A stretch of 64,000 nt of DNA from an uncultured Chlamydiae bacterium (lineage in GTDB: Bacteria; Chlamydiota; Chlamydiia; Chlamydiales; SM23-39): contig CAVSSM010000002.1 in the NCBI GenBank assembly GCA_963730605.1, positions 192,001-256,000 on the forward strand, read 5' to 3'. The notes under the pieces are model-generated. The model saw nothing but the letters and a program-made list of their open reading frames with translations, was not told the DNA's origin and made no database searches. This document shows positions 1,268-55,401 of the stretch, piece by piece. Positions within the stretch are counted from its first letter, which is position 1; each line of letters starts with the position of its first letter. Both the position numbers and the translations under genes were made by a program.

Positions 1268-1333
1268 GCACCTATCCTTGATGAAAACTATACTGCGACC
1301 GTTCAAAAAGAGTGAAAAATGCCACTGCGAAAT

Positions 1334-1367
1334 CATAAAAAAGGTCCTTGAATGGACCTTTTTTATG
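1334..1367. terminator. bidirectional intrinsic terminator-like hairpin inside element F
   Basis: CATAAAAAAGGTCC-ttgaat-GGACCTTTTTTATG. Confidence 0.65.
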
Positions 1368-1436
1368 CGAAGCAGCGCCCTGCATTTGAGTCAGGCGAAG
1401 CCGATGTCGAAGCAGCTAAACTTGAAAAGGTTAGCG

Positions 1437-1469
1437 CCGGGGTCCCCGAAGATGTATCATCTTTGGGGT
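1437..1469 (+). repeat. 32-bp hairpin module copy
   Basis: GGGGT-CCCCGAAGATG-TAT-CATCTTTGGGG-T. Confidence 0.8.
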
Positions 1470-1578
1470 AGGGCGCCGGCAGATGCACGCTTTTTGAGCG
1501 GGAGCAGTATATTAGTGGGATAGGTTCAAGCAACTTTCTACTAGCCTCCATAGCCCTGTTCCATTAGACTTTACGGAT

Positions 1579-10873: not shown

Positions 10874-11078
10874 GTTCTAGGACGCGTGCTCAAGGGTTGT
10901 GGCTGCTGGTTGATAATGAATCATATAAATCTCTAAAAGTTAACCGCCAATAGCGCCCTTTATAGGTATACTCAAGGATCCTGAACCACCTCCACCCCCT
11001 CCCTTCTGCCTAGCGATGTCTTAATAATTCTTTTCAGCTTAAGCGGGTTGTGATAACCTCTTCGTCTACGGTTTTTTC

Positions 11079-11798
11079 ATGCGCAGTCTCTACACTTGGC
11101 CTACTTTTCCCCGCGATTTAGAACCACCTGCCGCCAGGTCTCTGTCTTTCCTCTTTGTCCTCCAGGAATTTCTAGCTGCCTGTAGGCTGGTCGAGAGGCT
11201 CGAGAATGCGGCTCCGGAAGGAGACCTCGGCGGCATCTCTTCCCGCTTGGATCTCTTCCTCCTCTCCTCTTTGGATAACCCATTTGCCCAAAAGGGAGGC
11301 GCGCTCGACAAGCTTTGCTTTTATTGCGAAATTTTGCTACAAGGCTCGAAAGTCAGCGATGAGACTATCCTCGTGCTTCTGGAAGAGATGCAAAACGCCG
11401 TCATGAAAATCAGATCGAAACTGATCTTTTGGAAAAAGAAGGCGCCTCTTCGCGAGGAAATCGAAGCGGAATTTATGGAGCTCTACAAGCAGCTCCACCG
11501 GAACCTCGCCTCATTTTTTTCCTCCCTCCATGCTTTCCTCAAAGAATCCCGAACCGACGAGAACGTCCTCCTCTATCTCGTCGAACACCGCAAAGAGTTC
11601 AATCTTTACCTTGGCGAAAATGCGATCGAAAATCTCTTGAGCGTCTTTTTCCCCTCGGGGCCTCATGAACTTCGCGCAATGATCTGCGAAGGCTACACGC
11701 GCCGCGGCTTCGGCGCTTTTTACGCAGAGCAAGAACCGATGCTAGATGCCCTTGAATGGGAGACTCACGGATGTCCTTCCCCATCTCCGACGCGCTAA
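11079..11798 (+). CDS. hypothetical protein
   Basis: 239-aa ORF overlapping the next gene in an apparent operon with priA. Confidence 0.7.
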   Translation: MRSLYTWPTFPRDLEPPAARSLSFLFVLQEFLAACRLVERLENAAPEGDLGGISSRLDLFLLSSLDNPFAQKGGALDKLCFYCEILLQGSKVSDETILVLLEEMQNAVMKIRSKLIFWKKKAPLREEIEAEFMELYKQLHRNLASFFSSLHAFLKESRTDENVLLYLVEHRKEFNLYLGENAIENLLSVFFPSGPHELRAMICEGYTRRGFGAFYAEQEPMLDALEWETHGCPSPSPTR

Positions 11799-12610
11799 CT
11801 TTCATTCGGAGCGCGCTTCTTCTCCTTAAAGAAGAGCCGTTCATCCTCGCCTCGCCCGAAGATGCCGCCTATTTCCGCTTGCGGCATACGCATATGAAGG
11901 CGGCTCTTCACCCCAAAAACGATGCGTTTCTGGGGACCCCGGCGTTGCCTCTAGCGCCCATTGTGAACTCGCCGCCTCCGTCCAAGACGAGCGCGCAAAT
12001 CAAGACCGAGAAGCCGGTTCAAGAAGTTGCAAAGCCTAAAATGGAAGAGCCGCTGCCGGGGTCCCCAGAAACGCATCGTTTTTGGGGTGAAGAGCCGCTG
12101 CAAAAGCAAAGGGAGGGTGGCAAGCGCGAGGGATCCCATTTTTCTGCCATTTTAGAAAAAATCGCCCCAGAGCTTCCGCTCCTCGATGCGATTCCCGATG
12201 ACAAGACCGCAAAACAAATCGCAAACCGCTGGAAGACGAAAAACCAATCGGCGCCCATCTCGATCCTCTCGAGCGGAGAATTGCCCCAGCATAAGGCTCT
12301 TCTTGAGGAGATCGCAGTAGCCCTCGATGTGTACTTTGGAGAAGCGCGCCTGATCGTAGGAGATCCGATCGAAAAAGAAAAAGAGTGGAAAACGTTTCTC
12401 TCCGTCGGTAGCCTCAAGCTGATCGTCATTTGCGATTCGACTCTTTGGCAACTCCACAACCTACGGCAGTTCTACAAAGAGACCCCAGCCACCGGAGTCC
12501 GGACGCTGGGAGACGTGCCGGTCTTCCTTCTCCCAGACCTTTCCCTCTATCTGAAAGATCCTCTCCTCAAGCGCTCTCTTTGGAAAGCTCTATGCTCCAG
12601 ACTTTCGTAG
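11771..12610 (+). CDS. hypothetical protein preceding priA (probably the conserved chlamydial priA neighbour), with two in-frame hairpin modules
   Basis: ORF overlaps the priA start; C-terminus LSLYLKDPLLKRSLWKAL; Pro/Lys-rich linker holds the repeats. Confidence 0.75.
   Translation: MSFPISDALTFIRSALLLLKEEPFILASPEDAAYFRLRHTHMKAALHPKNDAFLGTPALPLAPIVNSPPPSKTSAQIKTEKPVQEVAKPKMEEPLPGSPETHRFWGEEPLQKQREGGKREGSHFSAILEKIAPELPLLDAIPDDKTAKQIANRWKTKNQSAPISILSSGELPQHKALLEEIAVALDVYFGEARLIVGDPIEKEKEWKTFLSVGSLKLIVICDSTLWQLHNLRQFYKETPATGVRTLGDVPVFLLPDLSLYLKDPLLKRSLWKALCSRLS
11900..12098. repeat. perfect 44-bp inverted repeat formed by two hairpin-module copies (11900-11943 and 12055-12098)
   Basis: GCCGGGGTCCCCAGAAACGCATCGTTTTTGGGGTGAAGAGCCGC and its reverse complement. 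Confidence 0.9.
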
Positions 12611-14841
12611 AGGTCCTCCTAGATCAAAATCTTGCGAAGCGGCTCGACTACGCGGTGCCAGAAGAGTGGGCATCCGAGATCGAGATCGGGATGCGGGTCG
12701 AGGTCCCCCTTAAAACTAAGGCGTTAAAAGCAACGGTGGTGAGGATTAAACAAGAATCTCTAGTACCAAACGTACGCCCGATCCTCCGCCTCCTCTCAAG
12801 CCAGTCTGAATTGACAGATGCCCAGTGGAAGCTCGCTCATTGGATGTCCCACTACTACGCCGCCCCTTTGCAGCGGGTGTTGAAATGCTTCATCCCCCCA
12901 AATGTCCGAAAAAACGTCAAAGCGAAGACCCAGATCTTCGTCTCCTTGAATGTGGCGAGGGGCAATGCTTTGAAGATTTGCGAGGTCCTCCGAAGAGAAA
13001 ATCCGGAAGAAGCGGCTGTATTGGAAGCGGTCTTACAAAGGAAAAGCTGTTTTGCGGCGGATCTCTCAAGGGAGCTGGGAGTTCCGATGAGCGCTATTGC
13101 CCGTCTCATGAAGAAAAAGATCCTTTCTTCAAAAAAGGCTCACCGAGAGGATGACATCCTCTTGGAAGAGGAATTTTTCAAAACGAAATCGAAATCACTC
13201 AATGTGGAACAAAAATCATGCTTTGATGCAGTCTCTGATTCTTTGTCAGGAAACCGTTTTGCCGCGCATCTCATCCACGGCGTGACCGGAAGCGGGAAAA
13301 CCGAAATCTACCTCCAGGCGATCACTCACGCGCTCGGGCAAAATAAAAGCGCCATCCTCTTAGTCCCCGAAATTTCTCTCACCTCTCAGACGCTTGCCCA
13401 TTTCCGCGCCCGTTTTTCTGAAAAAATCGCCATCCTCCACCACAAAAGAAGCCTAGGAGAACGGAGCTTAGCTTGGGAAAAGCTGAAATCCGGGGAGATC
13501 CGGATCGTCGTCGGCGCGAGATCGGCCATCTTCGCTCCCGCTCAAAATTTAGGCCTCATCATCGTAGATGAAGAACACGACAGCTCCTATAAACAGGGCG
13601 AAGAGGCCCCTTTCTACCATGCCCGCAACGTCGCCGTCATGCGCGCCCATTTGGAAAATGCCGTCGTTCTCCTCGGAAGCGCTACTCCATCTGTCGAATC
13701 GCGCTACAACGCCGAAATTGGCAAATACCGCCTCCATAAGATCGCCGCTCGCGCCACCTCCGCCCCTCTTCCCAAAGTCACTATCGTCGACATGAAAAAA
13801 GAACTCGAAAAAAGCGGCGGGTTCACCCATTTTTCCGAAGAGCTTTTGCAAGGGATCAAAGAGCGGTGCGATGCGGGAGAGCAAAGCCTCCTTTTTCTCA
13901 ACCGCCGCGGCTATCACCGGCTTCAAATCTGCAGCTCCTGCCGATCCGCCGTCAAATGCCCCCATTGCGACCTGGGGCTGACTTTCCATCGAGGCGAGAC
14001 CTCCGGGATCCCCAAAAAAGCATCGTTTTTGGGGGAGGGCCGCTTGCGGTGCCACCTTTGCGATTACCAGAGAGCGGCCCCGCGGGAGTGTCCCGCATGC
14101 GGGTCCTCGAACAGGCTCCAATTCAAAGGATTTGGGACGGAGCATGTGGAATGGTCGCTCCATGCCCTATTTCCCGATATCCGCACCCTCCGGATGGACC
14201 GGGACACAACGCAAAAAAAAGAGAGCCATGAAGAGATCTTCAAACAATTCCGCGCCCATAAAGCCGACGTGCTCATCGGCACTCAAATGATCGCGAAAGG
14301 CTTCCACTTCCCCTCGGTCACTCTCGTCGGCGTTCTTAATGCCGACGCCCCGCTCAGCATCCCCGATTTCCGCTCCGCCGAATCAGTCTTCCAACTCCTC
14401 ATCCAGGTGTCCGGGCGCTCCGGACGCTTGAACTTGCCGGGAGCTGTGATCCTCCAAACCTTCCTCCCCGACCACCCCGTCTTGAAGCTCGCCGCCGCCC
14501 AGGACTACGACGCCTTCTACAAAGCGGAAATCGAAGAGCGGCGCCTTTTCGGCTTTCCCCCCTTCGCCCACCTCGTAAAATGCCTTTTTTCCTCTCCCGA
14601 TCCCAAAGCCGCTGAGATGGCCGCAACCGAAGCTCATGCCGCCCTTGCCCAATCGCTTCCCCCGTTTGCCCAAGTCTTCCCTCCCGGCCCCTCCGGCCAT
14701 CCGAAAATCAAAGACCAATACAGGTTTCAGTTCCTCATCAAATCTCCCAAAATAGATCCATTAATCCCCATCTTGCAATCTATGCCAAAACTGAACGCTC
14801 AAATAAAAATTGATATAGATCCATTGTCAACATTTTTTTAA
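12592..14841 (+). CDS. priA: primosomal protein N' (replication restart helicase)
   Basis: GVTGSGKTEIY, IVDEEHD, SATPS, four CxxC pairs, GTQMIAKG, QVSGRSGR. Confidence 0.95.
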   Translation: MLQTFVEVLLDQNLAKRLDYAVPEEWASEIEIGMRVEVPLKTKALKATVVRIKQESLVPNVRPILRLLSSQSELTDAQWKLAHWMSHYYAAPLQRVLKCFIPPNVRKNVKAKTQIFVSLNVARGNALKICEVLRRENPEEAAVLEAVLQRKSCFAADLSRELGVPMSAIARLMKKKILSSKKAHREDDILLEEEFFKTKSKSLNVEQKSCFDAVSDSLSGNRFAAHLIHGVTGSGKTEIYLQAITHALGQNKSAILLVPEISLTSQTLAHFRARFSEKIAILHHKRSLGERSLAWEKLKSGEIRIVVGARSAIFAPAQNLGLIIVDEEHDSSYKQGEEAPFYHARNVAVMRAHLENAVVLLGSATPSVESRYNAEIGKYRLHKIAARATSAPLPKVTIVDMKKELEKSGGFTHFSEELLQGIKERCDAGEQSLLFLNRRGYHRLQICSSCRSAVKCPHCDLGLTFHRGETSGIPKKASFLGEGRLRCHLCDYQRAAPRECPACGSSNRLQFKGFGTEHVEWSLHALFPDIRTLRMDRDTTQKKESHEEIFKQFRAHKADVLIGTQMIAKGFHFPSVTLVGVLNADAPLSIPDFRSAESVFQLLIQVSGRSGRLNLPGAVILQTFLPDHPVLKLAAAQDYDAFYKAEIEERRLFGFPPFAHLVKCLFSSPDPKAAEMAATEAHAALAQSLPPFAQVFPPGPSGHPKIKDQYRFQFLIKSPKIDPLIPILQSMPKLNAQIKIDIDPLSTFF
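14003..14035 (+). repeat. hairpin module copy in frame within priA
   Basis: CCGGGAT-CCCCAAAAAAG-CAT-CGTTTTTGGGG; encodes GIPKKASFLG. Confidence 0.75.
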
Positions 14842-14864
14842 TAATAAAATTTAAAACATAACAA

Positions 14865-15024
14865 CTCGACTTTGTACAATTTTTGGCGAGCAGATCCAGA
14901 GGAAGCGCTCTGCAATTTTTTTCTTTTTTTGCGAAATTCATAGCCGAAGGCACTATTTATGAGCAAAAAAAAAAGGGCCAGCGATTCTCTCGGAGATGCC
15001 GTCACAAAATTGTACAAAGTCGAG
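14865..15024. mobile_element. MITE family A (160 bp)
   Basis: TIR CTCGACTTTGTACAATTTT; 5-bp TSD AACAA; near-identical copy at 37661-37825. Confidence 0.9.
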
Positions 15025-15089
15025 AACAACAGAATACAGGAATGCCGTGAACGTTTTCCAATCTGTTCGTTAACTTGCACCATTCAGAT

Positions 15090-15146
15090 CGGAAAACGGA
15101 AACGGAAACGGAAACGGAAACGGAAACGGAAACGGAAACGGAAACG
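15090..15146. repeat. (CGGAAA)n microsatellite
   Basis: 8 perfect units at 15097-15144 plus one imperfect unit. Confidence 0.95.
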
Positions 15147-15206
15147 TTCATGGCATTCCTCTTGTGGGTAACGATCAGCTTCTTGGCCCATTTGGAAATC
15201 TCGATA

Positions 15207-15405
15207 TATACCGCTCGTGATTCAAAAATCGGTTCTGGCGACGGCCCACCCCAAAGACGATGCGTCTTCGTAGACCCCGGACCCGGCGCCGGCAAGGCCT
15301 GGCTCAAATTCAGGTCTGCTTCCCTTAGAAAAAGCTCGAACCCCCGAGCTTTTTCAAGTGTCCGCAGCCTTGCCATATTCCGATTTTTGAATCCCTCTCG
15401 GTATA
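15207..15405. mobile_element. MITE-like element G with TATAC ends, carrying the hairpin module at 15248-15280 (minus)
   Basis: TIRs TATACCG-N5-GATTCAAAAATCGG at 15207-15232 and 15380-15405; internal terminator-like hairpin 15328-15355. Confidence 0.75.
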
Positions 15406-15553
15406 ATTGCAACTCAATGCGTGGTTGATTCTTGACAATGCACATTCAAATAAAAGTTGATATATATCCATCATCAACATTTTTATGAAATTAAATTTGT
15501 TTACATAAATAACCCTAATCTCGCATAATATCACGACAAAAACAAAGGTATTT

Positions 15554-16501
15554 ATGTCAATTCCACCTCTTCGCCACGAGCCCAAAATCCCGCCTTCCGA
15601 TCCTCTTCGCACTCCCCCGCGCACTTTGCCCCTTGATTCGATCCAACGAACGCAGAGCGCCGCCGCAGGAGCCTTGCCTCTAAAGGAAATGGATAAATCT
15701 GCGGATAAAAAAAAACCGATCCATCCGGAACCGCCGCAAAAGCCAAGAAAAGGATCTCCGCAAGGTCGGAGTTTATGGATCCAAAATGCTGAACAAATCT
15801 CATCCAAACTTAGCACAGACAAACCCTTTTGGCTCTCAATAGGGCCCCACGCAGTGACGATCCGACTCCTCAGGCTTATTGGAAGCGGCCGCTATAACGA
15901 TTCATTTCTAGTAGAGACCGATGAAGGCGAGCAAATGATCCTGAAACTCCCGAACCGGCGGATGCGAAATATGCCGAAGAGCGAGATTGCCGAGATTTTG
16001 AAAAACGAGCTTCTCGTCTATAAGAAATTCAAAGCGATCTTAGATAATGAAATCAACGCCGGGCGGGTTGCGACGTTTCACGATCTAGAGCGGTATATCA
16101 ATGTTAACGACTATGAGATTACAGGTGAATGGGCAAATGATCATTTAACACATGGATTTCATCTTATAGAGTACATTCCTCACGAATATCCTCTCGACCC
16201 AAAGGATGGGGAAATCCCAATAAAGGGCGACGGCTTTTTAGCCATCCATCCATCCGACGATGAACTCTCCGCTATGTTTAGGGCCGCATCTTTTGCCAAT
16301 CTGGAAGATCCTGCAGGAAAAACTCTTTCCGTTAACCTACAACGGGATAACATCCGAATGGACAACGATGGAATCCTAGTTCTGCTCGATCCTGCCCAGC
16401 CAGCCTCGGATAAGATCTTCGAAACGTTAGTGGAGAAATTCCTCGCCACCTTCGCGCCGCCAAGCTCCGACCGCTACCGCTTTCTCGACCCAAGGGATTA
16501 A
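15554..16501 (+). CDS. protein kinase-like fold protein, effector-like
   Basis: IGSGRY glycine loop, ILKLP lysine, alphaC Glu, NLQRDNI loop, LLDP; Pro-rich disordered N-terminus. Confidence 0.65.
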   Translation: MSIPPLRHEPKIPPSDPLRTPPRTLPLDSIQRTQSAAAGALPLKEMDKSADKKKPIHPEPPQKPRKGSPQGRSLWIQNAEQISSKLSTDKPFWLSIGPHAVTIRLLRLIGSGRYNDSFLVETDEGEQMILKLPNRRMRNMPKSEIAEILKNELLVYKKFKAILDNEINAGRVATFHDLERYINVNDYEITGEWANDHLTHGFHLIEYIPHEYPLDPKDGEIPIKGDGFLAIHPSDDELSAMFRAASFANLEDPAGKTLSVNLQRDNIRMDNDGILVLLDPAQPASDKIFETLVEKFLATFAPPSSDRYRFLDPRD

Positions 16502-28349: not shown

Positions 28350-28424
28350 GATTACATCGTTTCTAACGCAGCTTCAGAGAGTGTCTACAAAGCAGGGTGG
28401 CCCTCCCCCTCCTGCCAAAACTAT

Positions 28425-28593
28425 TAACCTGAGTTTTGGGTTCATTTGCCTGAGCTTCAATTTCTTTCGGCATCTTTTTGACTTTTCGCCTCGGCAAGAT
28501 GCTTGTCCCGATATTGCTCTCGGCTCCAAAGCGCAAAAATATGCTCGAAATATCCTTGAATCTCATAGACAAATGAACCCAAAACTCAGGTTA
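28425..28593. mobile_element. MITE family B (169 bp)
   Basis: Perfect 24-bp TIR TAACCTGAGTTTTGGGTTCATTTG; second copy at 37516-37854. Confidence 0.9.
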
Positions 28594-37507: not shown

Positions 37508-37515
37508 CATGCTAT

Positions 37516-37854
37516 TAACCTGAGTTTTGGGTTCATTTGCCTGAGCTTCAATTTCTTTCGGCATCTTTTTGACTTTTCGCCTCGGCAAGATGCTCGTCCC
37601 GATATTGCTCTCGGCTCCAAAGCGCAAAAATATGCTCGAAATATCCTTGAATCTCATAGACTCGACTTTGTACAATTTTTGGCGAGCAGATCCAGAGGAA
37701 GCGCTCTGCAATTTTTTTCTTTTTTTGCGAAATTCATAGCCGAAGGCACTATTTATGAGCAAAAAAAGGAAAAAAGGGCCAGCGATTCTCTCGGAGATGC
37801 CGTCACAAAATTGTACAAAGTCGAGATAGACAAATGAACCCAAAACTCAGGTTA
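37516..37854. mobile_element. MITE family B copy interrupted by a family A copy
   Basis: 339 bp = 169 + 165 + 5-bp duplication. Confidence 0.9.
37661..37825. mobile_element. MITE family A (nested copy)
   Basis: TIR CTCGACTTTGTACAATTTT; TSD ATAGA. Confidence 0.9.
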
Positions 37855-39241: not shown

Positions 39242-40465
39242 ATGACATATAATCCCGTTATAGGAATTGGAACCGGTGCACCAGGAATGGGAGCCGCTGC
39301 CCCCCAAGATTTTTTTTCACCATTGCCCGAGTTGCCAATGGAGCTCATCCAGTCATTCTTAGGTCCAAAAAGCAACGATGCCCTCTCGCGGACAAATACA
39401 AGACTACGCGCGGTTTCATGCCCTTTTAGAGCCGCCGTTCTTCGCTTTGAATACAAAATTGCAGAGAACAAACCCATTACCCTACAAGAGCTAATAGAAC
39501 TAAAAAATCTCAATCCGGATTTTTCAAGTAGAATACCATTCAAACTTGATTTATCAAACAGCAATATTTCTGATGTCGGGCTGCAAGAGCTTATTGTATG
39601 CTTTCCTAATATTATTGAAATTAATGCACAACACTGTCAGGGTTTAACCGATGCCGGGCTGCAGCACCTGGCACATTTGAAAAATCTCACAAGCCTCGAC
39701 TTGACAGAATGCACCCAGGTCACCGACAACGGACTGCAGTTCCTGGCAAGTTTGATAAATCTCACAAGCCTCAGCCTGGAGGGATGCTCCCGGATCACCG
39801 ACGTCGGACTGCGGTGCCTGGCAAGTTTGAAAAATCTCACCACCCTCAACCTGGCATGGTGCCGCCGGATCCCCGACATCGGGCTGCAGTGCCTGGCAAA
39901 TTTGCCAAATCTCACTAACCTCAGCCTAGCACAGTGCACCCAAGTCACCGACATCGTGCTGCAGAGCCTGGCAGGTTTGATACATCTTACAAGCCTCGAC
40001 CTAGAAGGGTGCCACCAGATCACTGACGGGGGGCTGCGGCACTTGGCAGGTTTGATAAATCTCATAAGCCTCAACCTGACATGGTGCCCCAAGATCACCG
40101 ATACCGGGCTGCAGTACTCGGCAAGTTTGAAAAATCTCACAAACCTCAGTCTGAAGGGGTGCAACCGGATCACCGACAACGGACTGCAGTTCCTGGCAAG
40201 TTTGATAAATCTCACAAGCCTCAGCCTGGAGGGATGCTACCAGATCACCGACGGGGGGCTGCGGTACCTGGCGGCAGGTTTGGCAAAGCTCACACGTCTC
40301 AGCCTGAAGGGGTGCTTCCAGGTCACCAACATCGGACTGCAGCACCTGGCAGGTTTGGCCAAGCTCACAAGCCTTGACCTGTCAGAATGCCAACAGATTA
40401 CTGACGCCGGGCTGCAGTGCCTGGCAGGTTGTCGTATTATCCGATTTTTCGGTGTGTTCAGATAA
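39242..40465 (+). CDS. F-box-like / cysteine-containing LRR protein, effector-like
   Basis: LPELPMELIQSFL...LSRTN; about 11 repeats of 25 aa, LTSLxLxxCxxITDxGLxxLA. Confidence 0.85.
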   Translation: MTYNPVIGIGTGAPGMGAAAPQDFFSPLPELPMELIQSFLGPKSNDALSRTNTRLRAVSCPFRAAVLRFEYKIAENKPITLQELIELKNLNPDFSSRIPFKLDLSNSNISDVGLQELIVCFPNIIEINAQHCQGLTDAGLQHLAHLKNLTSLDLTECTQVTDNGLQFLASLINLTSLSLEGCSRITDVGLRCLASLKNLTTLNLAWCRRIPDIGLQCLANLPNLTNLSLAQCTQVTDIVLQSLAGLIHLTSLDLEGCHQITDGGLRHLAGLINLISLNLTWCPKITDTGLQYSASLKNLTNLSLKGCNRITDNGLQFLASLINLTSLSLEGCYQITDGGLRYLAAGLAKLTRLSLKGCFQVTNIGLQHLAGLAKLTSLDLSECQQITDAGLQCLAGCRIIRFFGVFR

Positions 40466-43405: not shown

Positions 43406-44046
43406 AGAACTGACGCATTAAAAAAATCAAAGAAGAATAGACGGTCGGGTTGCTTCCGTGCGCAGATCGCCGCCTGCTACGCGGCGGCCTTGTTCCGATT
43501 GTAGTATTTATTAAAATTTTAATAAACATACGCTCTATAATCAAAAAATCAGAGCCTTTATTTCATCATAAAATAAACTGAATGTTCTTATTCCACAGCA
43601 TTTCGTAATCGATATTTAAAAAACGCTGCTGCGTAGCAGGCGGCGATCTGCGCACGGAAGGGGCCCGCGAAGCGGGAACACGTGTGCAGCCGATGGCGGG
43701 TTCGGACAAAGAGCAATCCGCGCCGCAAAAGCGAGGAGGCGCACTCTGTGCGACGCACGAGCAAGGCGCGCCCCTAGGGGTCCCCGACGATGCATCATCG
43801 TTGGGGAATGGGGGTAGGGAGCGCTTCTGCCGCCGCGAGCAAGGGGTCCCAAAAAACGCATCGTTTTTGGGGTTCGCGTGGCAGGCGGCTATGCTATACC
43901 CGCGCGATCGGTGCTCGAAGTCCCAATCCCGCCACCTGGGCGTGCGGGGGCGGAGCGGAAAGGGGCCCCAAATCGTTTCGTTTGGGGAAAGTCCGCGAAG
44001 CAACTCGACCGTCTCTGGTTCTTTACCATTTTAATGCGTCAGATCT
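43406..44046. mobile_element. ~640-bp non-autonomous composite element E
   Basis: TIR AGAWCTGACGCATTAAAA, imperfect to ~50 bp; flanking direct repeat GTTCCGTTAGAT(AGAAC); internal 30-bp IR; three hairpin modules. Confidence 0.8.
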
Positions 44047-53269: not shown

Positions 53270-55401
53270 ATGGCATCCATAACACCAACTAAAACTTACG
53301 AATACAAATTTCAGTCGCCGGCCCAAAGTTACATTGGTCAAAACAGCAGACAGGATCTTCCTAAGCAAAATTTGAACGGTAGAGTCAACGCTCTTCCTCC
53401 AAAAACGAATCGAATTCCGTCGTGTGGGTCACACCGGTTTGTTATGCAACTCTGATCCTAGCCGCCGGAATGGGAATGATGGCTTTGTTGGGCAATCCAG
53501 GTGCCAATCCAACTCCTAATCCTAAACCATCGCCAACTCCAACTCCCATGCCTAATCCAACTCCAACTCCAAAGTCATCGCCATCTCCAACTCCCATGCC
53601 TAATCCAACTCCAACTCCAAAGTCATCGCCATCTCCAACTCCCATGCCTAATCCAACTCCAACTCCCAAGTCATCGCCATCTCCAACTCCATCGCCAACG
53701 CCGTCTCTAACTCCCCTCTCTCCAGATGCTAACGCCAACATCGGCGTCTCCGTTACAACTTTCAATTCCAAGCTCGATGCCACTTCTGAGAACGACATCA
53801 ATGCAAGAATATATAAGTTGGGCGGGGACAATGTAGGTTCTATGAATTCCTTCGGATTCCCTTCGTATAATCAGTCGCATTTTTGCTTAGTTGAGGGAAA
53901 TGCCTCTACATTTCCAACTCTAGAATCAAGCGCATCTCCAACACCGGTTCCTTCTTCGAACTCACTACTAGTACTGTCGCCGATAGCATCGACTACCGAG
54001 TTCCCGATTTCGAGTGAGCCAAACCCGACACCGATACAAACACAACAAACGCAGTGGACCAAGAATGTCTTGGGGGTAATCCTTCCTGAATCCCTCGGGC
54101 ATGATGTGACACTTGCGCCTTGTGCAGCAAATGTAGCTGCAGTAGCCATAATTCCAACTCCAACTCCCAAGTCATCGCCATCTCCAACTCCAACTCCAAC
54201 TCCCATGCCTAATCCAACTCCAACTCCCAAGTCATCGCCATCTCCAACTCTCATGCCTAATCCAACTCCAACTCCCAAGTCATCGCCATCTCCAACTCCC
54301 ATGCCTAATCCAACTCCAACTCCCAAGTCATCGCCATCTCCAACTCCCATGCCTAATCCAACTCCAACTCCCAAGTCATCGCCATCTCCAACTCCCATGC
54401 CTAATCCAACTCCAACTCCCAAGTCATCGCCATCTCCAACTCCCATGCCTAATCCAACTCCAACTCCCAAGTCATCGCCATCTCCAACTCCCATGCCTAA
54501 TCCAACTCCACCGTCGCTATCGCCAATGGCTCTAACACCCGTGCCAACGCCGGAGGCGAAGCCATCGTCAACTCCGGTAGAGCCAACAAAACAAAAAGAA
54601 GAATCTTCCTTCACAGATCCTCGGCACGTTTTTATAAAGGAGACGGCCATGAATGGCGATCCCTTTTACATGGACCTCATTGTAAGCTACTGGAAAGAAG
54701 GGACCATTTCTTCTTCAGACGAAGAGAAATCTGTCATTATAAATGCTTTTCACTCAAATCTCTTAAAGCAAGCCAGGCAAGGCTACCCTATCGCTATGAA
54801 TAGATTACAATCCCTTTGGAAGGATGGGACGCTTTCCGCTTCAGAAGAAGAAAAATTGTCCATCAGGACTGATTGTAATGCAGTCACACAGCAGAACTTT
54901 GAAAAACACCTCAAAGTAAATGCCATGAATGGCGATCCCTTTTACATGGACCTCATTGTAAGCTACTGGAAAGAAGGGACCATTTCTTCTTCAGACGAAG
55001 AGAAATCTGTCATTATAAATGCTTTTCACTCAAATCTCTCAAAGCAAGCCAGGCAAGGCTACCCTATCGCTATGAATAGATTACAATCCCTTTGGAAGGA
55101 TGGGACGCTTTCCGCTTCAGAAGAAGAAAAATTGTCCATCAGGACTGATTGTAATGCAGTCACACAGCAGAACTTTGAAAAACACCTCAAAGTAAATGCC
55201 ATGAATGGCGATCCCTTTTACATGAACCTCATTGTAAGCTACTGGAAAGAAGGGTTCATTTCCTCTACAGACCAAGAGATAGCCGCCATCAGAGACGCTT
55301 GCGACCGGGCAAGAGGGAAAAAGTATTCCAAACCTTGTATTTCTTCTTCAGATGAAAGGGAATCTACCATCAGAGATGCTCACCTGGCAACCTCAATGTA
55401 A
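53270..55401 (+). CDS. membrane-anchored Pro/Thr/Ser-rich repeat protein with C-terminal helical repeats; apparent frameshift near 53420
   Basis: ORF 53270-53455 has the promoter and RBS and overlaps ORF 53422-55401 out of frame; TM segment; ([16 protein letters not shown])n. Confidence 0.65.
53511..54510 (+). repeat. 48-bp coding tandem repeats in two blocks (about 3 and 7 units)
   Basis: CCAACTCCAACTCCCAAGTCATCGCCATCTCCAACTCCCATGCCTAAT units near 53511-53690 and 54154-54510. Confidence 0.92.
54646..55252 (+). repeat. 276-bp near-perfect tandem duplication (about 2.2 units)
   Basis: Units start at 54646, 54922 and 55198. Confidence 0.92.

Follow-up and report, generated by a model that had tools for sequence, protein, structure and literature searches.

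The priA gene in a 64,000-nucleotide stretch of a chlamydial genome (hereafter the window) carries a net insertion of 39 nt that keeps the reading frame, lengthens the β-hairpin pin of the PriA helicase by 13 residues and is one copy of a dispersed hairpin repeat. This is a case in the Chlamydiota that resembles the Rickettsia palindromic elements, and it does not represent a novel type of system. We consider it probable that the hairpin was amplified within MITEs by an IS630 transposase, was copied alone into priA and is translated there as a tolerated, functionless extension of the pin. The observed parts of this account are the insert, the repeat family, its MITE context, the identity of a MITE end with an IS630 end, the in-frame copies in other genes and the signature of purifying selection on priA. 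In-frame palindromic repeats are known, and the question they pose is by what route they enter genes. The insert also provides a naturally occurring PriA whose pin is longer by 13 residues; the pin has so far been studied in E. coli.

An in-frame insertion in the PriA pin

The insert and the hairpin within it are placed as follows:
12595..14841, plus strand: priA, 748 aa, from the ATG at 12595 to the stop at 14841, intact and with all PriA domains
13957..14061, plus strand: CPHC...CHLC segment of the Cys-rich region, which bears the β-hairpin pin, with a 27-aa spacer
13999..14037, plus strand: in-frame insertion of net 39 nt, encoding residues 469-481 (TSGIPKKASFLGE), with junctions placed to within a few codons
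14000..14047, plus strand: 48-nt tract resembling MITE-borne copies, reaching 9 nt beyond the net insert, possibly microhomology
14005..14034, plus strand: hairpin module, with tag 14005-14009, stem 14010-14020 paired with 14024-14034, and loop 14021-14023

Between CPHC (13957) and CHLC (14050) the protein reads DLGLTFHRGETSGIPKKASFLGEGRLR, a spacer of 27 residues. The extra residues are T469-E481 (13 aa, 39 nt), and the Pfam match to the Cys-rich region ends at residue 468, where the insert starts. An assembly artefact was rejected on the strength of a contig from the public sequencing run X5, which bridges both junctions (13866-14079) with 0 differences to the window; contigs of the public runs X1 and X2 also cover the insert with 0 differences and extend less than 31 nt beyond the left junction (the source study is possibly among these three runs).

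The spacer is 14 residues long in 28/28 orthologues with a readable Cys-rich region. The orthologue set comprised 30 loci from 41 genomes, namely the window, these 28 and the closest relative, G003, which is about 90% identical and whose priA contigs stop at residues 425 and 507. E. coli PriA (8FAK) also has a 14-residue spacer, and its alignment shows a 13-residue gap at the place of the insert. An order-wide search matched 282 of 300 genomes, and the 149 non-self matches listed, whose spans were read by eye, cover 12-14 residues fewer than the query (134 others fall outside this list). Of 80 metagenome PriA loci, 44 have a spacer of 13 aa, 5 of 14 aa and 31 of 18 aa; the 18-aa spacers, the longest seen otherwise, come from gut metagenomes and represent three near-identical variants. 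The PriA tip can thus vary a little, and none of these loci reaches 27. Among the genus orthologues, the metagenome loci and the listed order-wide matches, the 27-aa spacer occurs in one species only. The initial annotation had proposed a lineage-specific indel of about 13 residues encoded by a repeat. The 13-residue gap and the repeat family described below confirm the origin of the residues, the orthologues and the listed matches bear out the lineage specificity, and orthologue loops of equal length, which it had named as contrary evidence, were looked for and not found among the 28. The many further in-frame copies and the tie to MITEs and IS630, set out below, go beyond that annotation. 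Because no close relative with an empty priA site was found (G003 is gapped there and the best metagenome matches are 65-68% identical), the junctions and the age of the insertion are not fixed.

The insert belongs to a family of short hairpin repeats

The priA hairpin (14010-14034) has an 11-bp stem with 10/11 positions paired, a CAT loop and a GGGAT tag 5' of the stem. Taken alone, its fold stands out only moderately (z = -2.4 over 13992-14047, -1.5 when the cut is wider), and it is the repeat family rather than the fold statistics that carries the evidence. A search of the 2.2-Mb genome with an HMM of the hairpin gave 154 non-overlapping copies at E<0.01; at E<1 the count rose to 169, and the reversed genome yielded 1. 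The unit, which we call the module, measures 30-45 nt and consists of a 5-nt G-rich tag, an 11-bp stem and the CAT loop; the tags in 63 units include GGGGC (28), GGGGT (15) and GGGAT (8). Rfam covariance models gave 0 matches at E<=0.1 in window positions 11000-16000. The module pattern was present in 25/103 family genomes with zero control matches, and a scan of a species collection returned 77 module loci, of which the 12 with a taxon name are all chlamydial.

At stem positions 5-10 of 54 distinct cores, 276/324 pairs are Watson-Crick, against 209 +/- 6 (maximum 228) with the arms shuffled, a significance that is overstated since the copies are related and self-correction of the palindrome could yield pairing without selection. 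On one strand G.T pairs outnumber C.A pairs by 50 to 14 in 68 distinct cores, or by 27 to 14 when one lineage-defining position is left aside, a bias that is suggestive only. The idea that the module is stop-free in all frames was rejected as a general rule, as it holds for 34/54 distinct cores only (17% of random 30-mers are stop-free). A target-site duplication for lone modules was likewise rejected: direct repeats of at least 8 nt flank 3/63 units, against 5.6% in shuffled pairings, none is present at the PriA insert, and the shorter repeats are mostly spacers of tandem arrays.

The size, the 5' tag, the invariant loop and the covarying stem recall REP sequences, and the module might be a REP-like unit moved by an HUH transposase (RAYT or IS200/IS605 TnpA) that also invaded MITEs. 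Intragenic GTAG/CGTC REPs, as described in PMC3733652, are tagged stem-loops of 20-40 bp, occur inside ORFs as singles, dimers and tandem groups, and often lie in ORFs for DNA replication and repair; priA does not appear in the text of that study or in its 4 text supplements. The lack of a target duplication, the excess of G.T over C.A pairs on one strand and the presence of the module in several unrelated MITE types and several genera would all suit such a route. However, the module tag is GGGG(T/C) rather than GTAG or CGTC, no RAYT associated with or flanked by the module was found in the 6 incomplete genomes searched, and stem covariation is also obtainable by palindrome self-correction. 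G000 holds only a decayed IS605-type element (G000:C2:394036-397197, a tnpA remnant with a frameshifted tnpB-like gene), a Y1 transposase is present in 2/5 module-rich relatives, and 0/4 Y1 loci have a module within about 1.5 kb. We therefore regard this route as an unlikely source of the priA copy.

Modules also occur in tandem, repeating about every 36 nt, in arrays of 10 (G000:C5:65873-66233) and 9 copies (G000:C7:8767-9086), the first of which makes up the N-terminal part of an MsrB ORF. Four lone modules at G000:C4:66417-67457 are intergenic, by eye in the tuf / tRNA / secE / nusG / rplK region, and a role at the RNA level in this highly expressed operon is possible. Another module (G000:C2:451773-451799) sits between convergent genes, 5 and 8 nt from the gene ends, a position like that of a terminator.

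Modules lie in frame in other conserved genes

Of 39 module-bearing ORFs scanned, nine were aligned to orthologues from the genus, as were priA and the gene upstream of it. In 11/11 aligned hosts (priA, the upstream gene, murC-ddl, murG, dnaX, plsX, nadK, ackA, recD2, menE and suhB) the extra residues are the module, in frame, although the hosts were chosen for location in long ORFs, which makes the set circular as proof of being in frame. The weakest of the 11 is dnaX, because its linker is variable; a one-ended MITE fragment lies in this gene. The sites in murG, nadK and suhB are unoccupied in G003, as are one site in the upstream gene and one in menE; plsX, ackA, murC-ddl, the other upstream-gene site and two sites in menE are occupied there, and in murC-ddl there is one copy against two between G003 and G000. 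This mix suggests that insertion was ongoing around the G000/G003 split. The MurC-Ddl fusion and a CT351-family match in the genome agree with its place in the Chlamydiota.

The 19 copies read use five of the six frames and both orientations. In plsX the same site is occupied in G000 and G003 and the module frame differs between them through compensating one-base indels that keep the host frame, accompanied by a compensated change in the stem. The five frames and the plsX frame switch indicate that what is conserved is the shape of the DNA and the frame of the host, and not the peptide. Eight lone module sites lie outside any ORF of 100 aa, apparently between genes, and none visibly splits a gene. 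Selection would retain, within loops of proteins, only those copies that preserve the frame.

Whole elements are found in genes as well. In recD2 (G000:C7:29293-31989) a 313-bp MITE with its TA duplication adds 105 aa, and G002 retains the empty F-I-W site. Members of this 313-bp family also lie within long ORFs for an RlmKL-like protein, a secretin GspD and a sulfatase. In other genomes, modules were seen in long ORFs with SMC/RecN-like, IPP transferase, GHMP kinase and pseudouridine synthase domains (12/16 host ORFs scanned).

The priA hairpin stands between two identical Glu codons, the GAGs at 13996 and 14035, exactly 39 nt apart, so that excision or bypass at the RNA level could in principle restore a normal pin. 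Bypass elements are known from yeast mitochondria and T4 gene 60. Against such skipping, the first GAG has no stop codon after it, all verified inserts preserve the frame (plsX by its compensating indels), and no frame-breaking module copy was seen in a gene, with both orientations in use; we consider it very improbable. Contigs of 8 DNA runs contain no join that skips the insert, a comparison in which contigs cannot show absence.

MITE carriers and a resident IS630 element

Besides the priA copy, the window contains modules in longer repeats:
15199..15406, minus strand: 208-bp TA-ended MITE with the module, one end matching the IS630 left end at 21/21 nt
1282..1528, plus strand: TA-ended MITE of another end type, with the module
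43685..43888, plus strand: two more copies of the module, within another repeat context

Across the genome, 163 module matches at E<0.05 group into 103 loci, of which 63 belong to repeats of 150-399 bp, 26 stand alone at <70 bp and 14 have other sizes. The long repeats, mostly 200-350 bp, are mosaics of hairpins with TATAC..GTATA ends that are usually complementary at 20-28 of 30 nt; these carriers have terminal inverted repeats and a TA target duplication. In a test for the end motifs, 16/66 end-bearing loci lay inside ORFs of at least 200 aa, compared with 24/37 other loci, one of the latter being a MITE outside the motif list and some of the ORF overlaps probably being spurious 5' extensions. 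In other genomes, 8/77 module loci had paired ends in a strict test; the module may therefore predate these MITEs and not depend on them.

The genome has 29 DDE_3 (IS630-like) matches, and three multi-copy elements account for 14, 6 and about 9 copies. The 14-copy element is 1121 bp long, is TA-flanked (13/14 aligned) and has identical DDE_3 matches, which points to recent activity. Its left 21 nt recur at non-IS sites once exactly (15199-15406), 18 times with at most 1 mismatch and 23 times with at most 2, against 0 in the reversed control; its right end has 0 non-IS sites within 2 mismatches in the genome. The identity thus concerns the left end and one MITE family, and for several MITE end types no counterpart was seen among the transposases examined. 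Insertion of IS630 is almost confined to TA, which is duplicated in the process (34/39 products; PMC2170065). We infer that the carriers were likely amplified by an IS630 transposase, this one being the candidate. The link between RUP and IS630-Spn1, as presented in PMC2229807, rests on the same kind of indirect end similarity.

Other near-identical dispersed repeats with inverted ends occur in the window at 14864-15025 / 37660-37826 and 28421-28570 / 37512-37661, the first of them starting just past the priA stop.

Entry of the lone copy into priA

A gene next to priA preserves the clearest trace of how a lone module may move:
11756..12610, plus strand: upstream gene, 284 aa, no Pfam match, two in-frame module copies
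11900..11943, minus strand: module copy missing from G003; its 44 nt equal the reverse complement of 12055-12098, host flank included
12055..12098, plus strand: module copy shared with G003, with flanking direct repeats of 13-14 nt

The 36-nt insert that G003 lacks thus has its donor about 110 nt away in inverted orientation, and it sits between two short host motifs that are found both in the empty site and in the flanks of the donor. The 44-nt identity and the shared motifs are as template switching or short-patch conversion would leave. We consider short-patch copying the likely entry route of lone modules, judging from this one clear case, in the upstream gene rather than in priA.

At the PriA insert there is no TA dinucleotide, transposon end or end remnant within 13975-14065, nor a flanking direct repeat or target duplication. 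In sequence the PriA copy belongs with the MITE-type variant, and its 48-nt MITE-like tract exceeds the 39-nt net insert, which fits copying at microhomologies; its right flank matches MITE flanks at 9/15, a weak resemblance reached by 2% of random sites. The lone module was likely copied into priA by such short-patch (microhomology or template-switch) copying and not by transposition. Since it is an internal module with no ends, inverted repeats or TA duplication, the insert is not itself a MITE.

The MITE-type sequence of the copy could also mean that a whole MITE first transposed to a TA among the codons of the pin and later lost all but its hairpin through deletions. Whole MITEs do occur in frame, as the 105 aa in RecD2 attest, dnaX carries a one-ended fragment, and some priA orthologues have a TA in nearby codons. 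Such a history is nevertheless unlikely: both arms and both TA copies must have been lost from priA, the lengths of lone inserts in different genes group around 33-51 nt or multiples thereof, and an intermediate of 100 aa in the pin would probably have been costly.

Beyond short-patch copying as such, we tentatively raise the possibility that the hairpin of 36-39 nt is a transposase-free replicator, amplified in MITEs and then copying itself by template switching at microhomologies. If so, it would offer a concrete and testable route by which coding palindromes of the Rickettsia type enter genes.

Consequences for PriA

A structural model of the window PriA (mean pLDDT 85, pTM 0.82) has the full PriA fold, with TM scores of 0.79/0.91 to 8FAK. 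It places residues 468-480 between strands 463-466 and 482-485, and by alignment the insert falls near E. coli PriA residues 456-459, at the turn of the β-hairpin; this agrees with the initial annotation, which had put the insert in the β-hairpin wedge. Low pLDDT at 468-480 was not taken as disorder, as the input alignment had no rows there. The E. coli pin (PMC10175261, PMC13594977; PDB 8FAK, 4NL4) has the 14-residue spacer of the orthologues, and that of the window, at 27 aa, is nearly doubled.

The gene is under purifying selection. Against G003, dN/dS is 0.155 over 424 codons and 0.108 over 241 codons, with the Cys-rich region outside the measured codons, and five other module hosts gave 0.07-0.33 (priA 0.11-0.16). 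The window PriA departs from 4 conserved columns, compared with 0-20 in the 28 orthologues, which is no more than its close orthologues do. The possibility that priA is a pseudogene or a relaxed gene was rejected on these grounds. Together with the match of the model to 8FAK, selection and conserved columns suggest that PriA is likely functional. The earlier proposal that the repeat was tolerated holds as far as survival of the gene, as read from its codon substitutions.

The β-hairpin pin of E. coli PriA is essential for unwinding, and its tip crosslinks to lagging-strand DNA (PMC10175261). In vivo, the helicase activity is dispensable for PriA-PriB restart in that organism (PMC10175261, PMC13594977). 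No PriB of the gammaproteobacterial type was found in 7/7 genus genomes, a weak negative for a diverged family, and dispensability may therefore not carry over. If the replicator reading is true, this PriA would be a natural variant with a nearly doubled pin in a lineage with no recognisable PriB. The RPE insert of the Rickettsia Gmk is translated, and the enzyme is active with altered affinity, as reported in PMC2229807. The priA insert is likely translated too, as a tolerated and functionless 13-residue extension, and PriA presumably still performs its essential function, with unwinding that is normal or somewhat weakened.

The insert places basic and aromatic residues at the pin tip, the part that contacts lagging-strand DNA in E. 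coli, and some gut-metagenome PriAs have 18-aa spacers, from which one could argue that the extension is adaptive and changes fork specificity or unwinding. The extension occurs in one species only, however, and its peptide is a generic frame product also seen in unrelated genes, which makes adaptation very hard to credit.

Relation to known palindromic elements

In-frame palindromic elements are known from Rickettsia (RPE) and Wolbachia (WPE) (PMC10969869, PMC2229807, PMC3767692). As described there, these share with the module a palindromic repeat that is intergenic as well as in frame in unrelated housekeeping genes, in a host-associated lineage and with host genes intact. The module likewise is a multi-copy palindrome, intergenic and intragenic, in frame in the conserved genes of all 11 aligned hosts. 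It differs from RPEs proper, which are 100-150 bp long with one conserved peptide, in its length of 30-45 nt and its five frames, and also in its presence in the Chlamydiota and in a multi-copy IS630 that shares an end with a carrier MITE. RPE models gave no match at E<=1e-8 in an NCBIfam scan of the 39 host ORFs, a scan that is insensitive for 13 aa. The priA insert is thus RPE-like in mode and lies outside the RPE and GTAG/CGTC REP families by their defining features.

The carriers, for their part, resemble the IS630-type MITEs (RUP of Streptococcus pneumoniae, ERIC, Correia/NEMIS) described in PMC2229807, with TA duplication, terminal inverted repeats and, as in RUP, an end similar to that of a resident IS630; ERIC also forms in-frame fusions. 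The carriers here differ in being 200-350 bp mosaics of several hairpins. Within the literature covered, from which most subscription journals and bioRxiv supplements were absent, we found no chlamydial case of an in-frame palindrome of the MITE/IS630 kind.

This one genome brings together identical IS630 copies, MITEs that share an end with them, genes that hold whole MITEs or lone modules, and sites that prove filled or empty when compared with a sister species, which makes the route by which palindromes enter genes testable. The window also contains coding tandem repeats at 39572-40426 (75 nt), 53458-54621 (24/48 nt) and 54646-55380 (276 nt).
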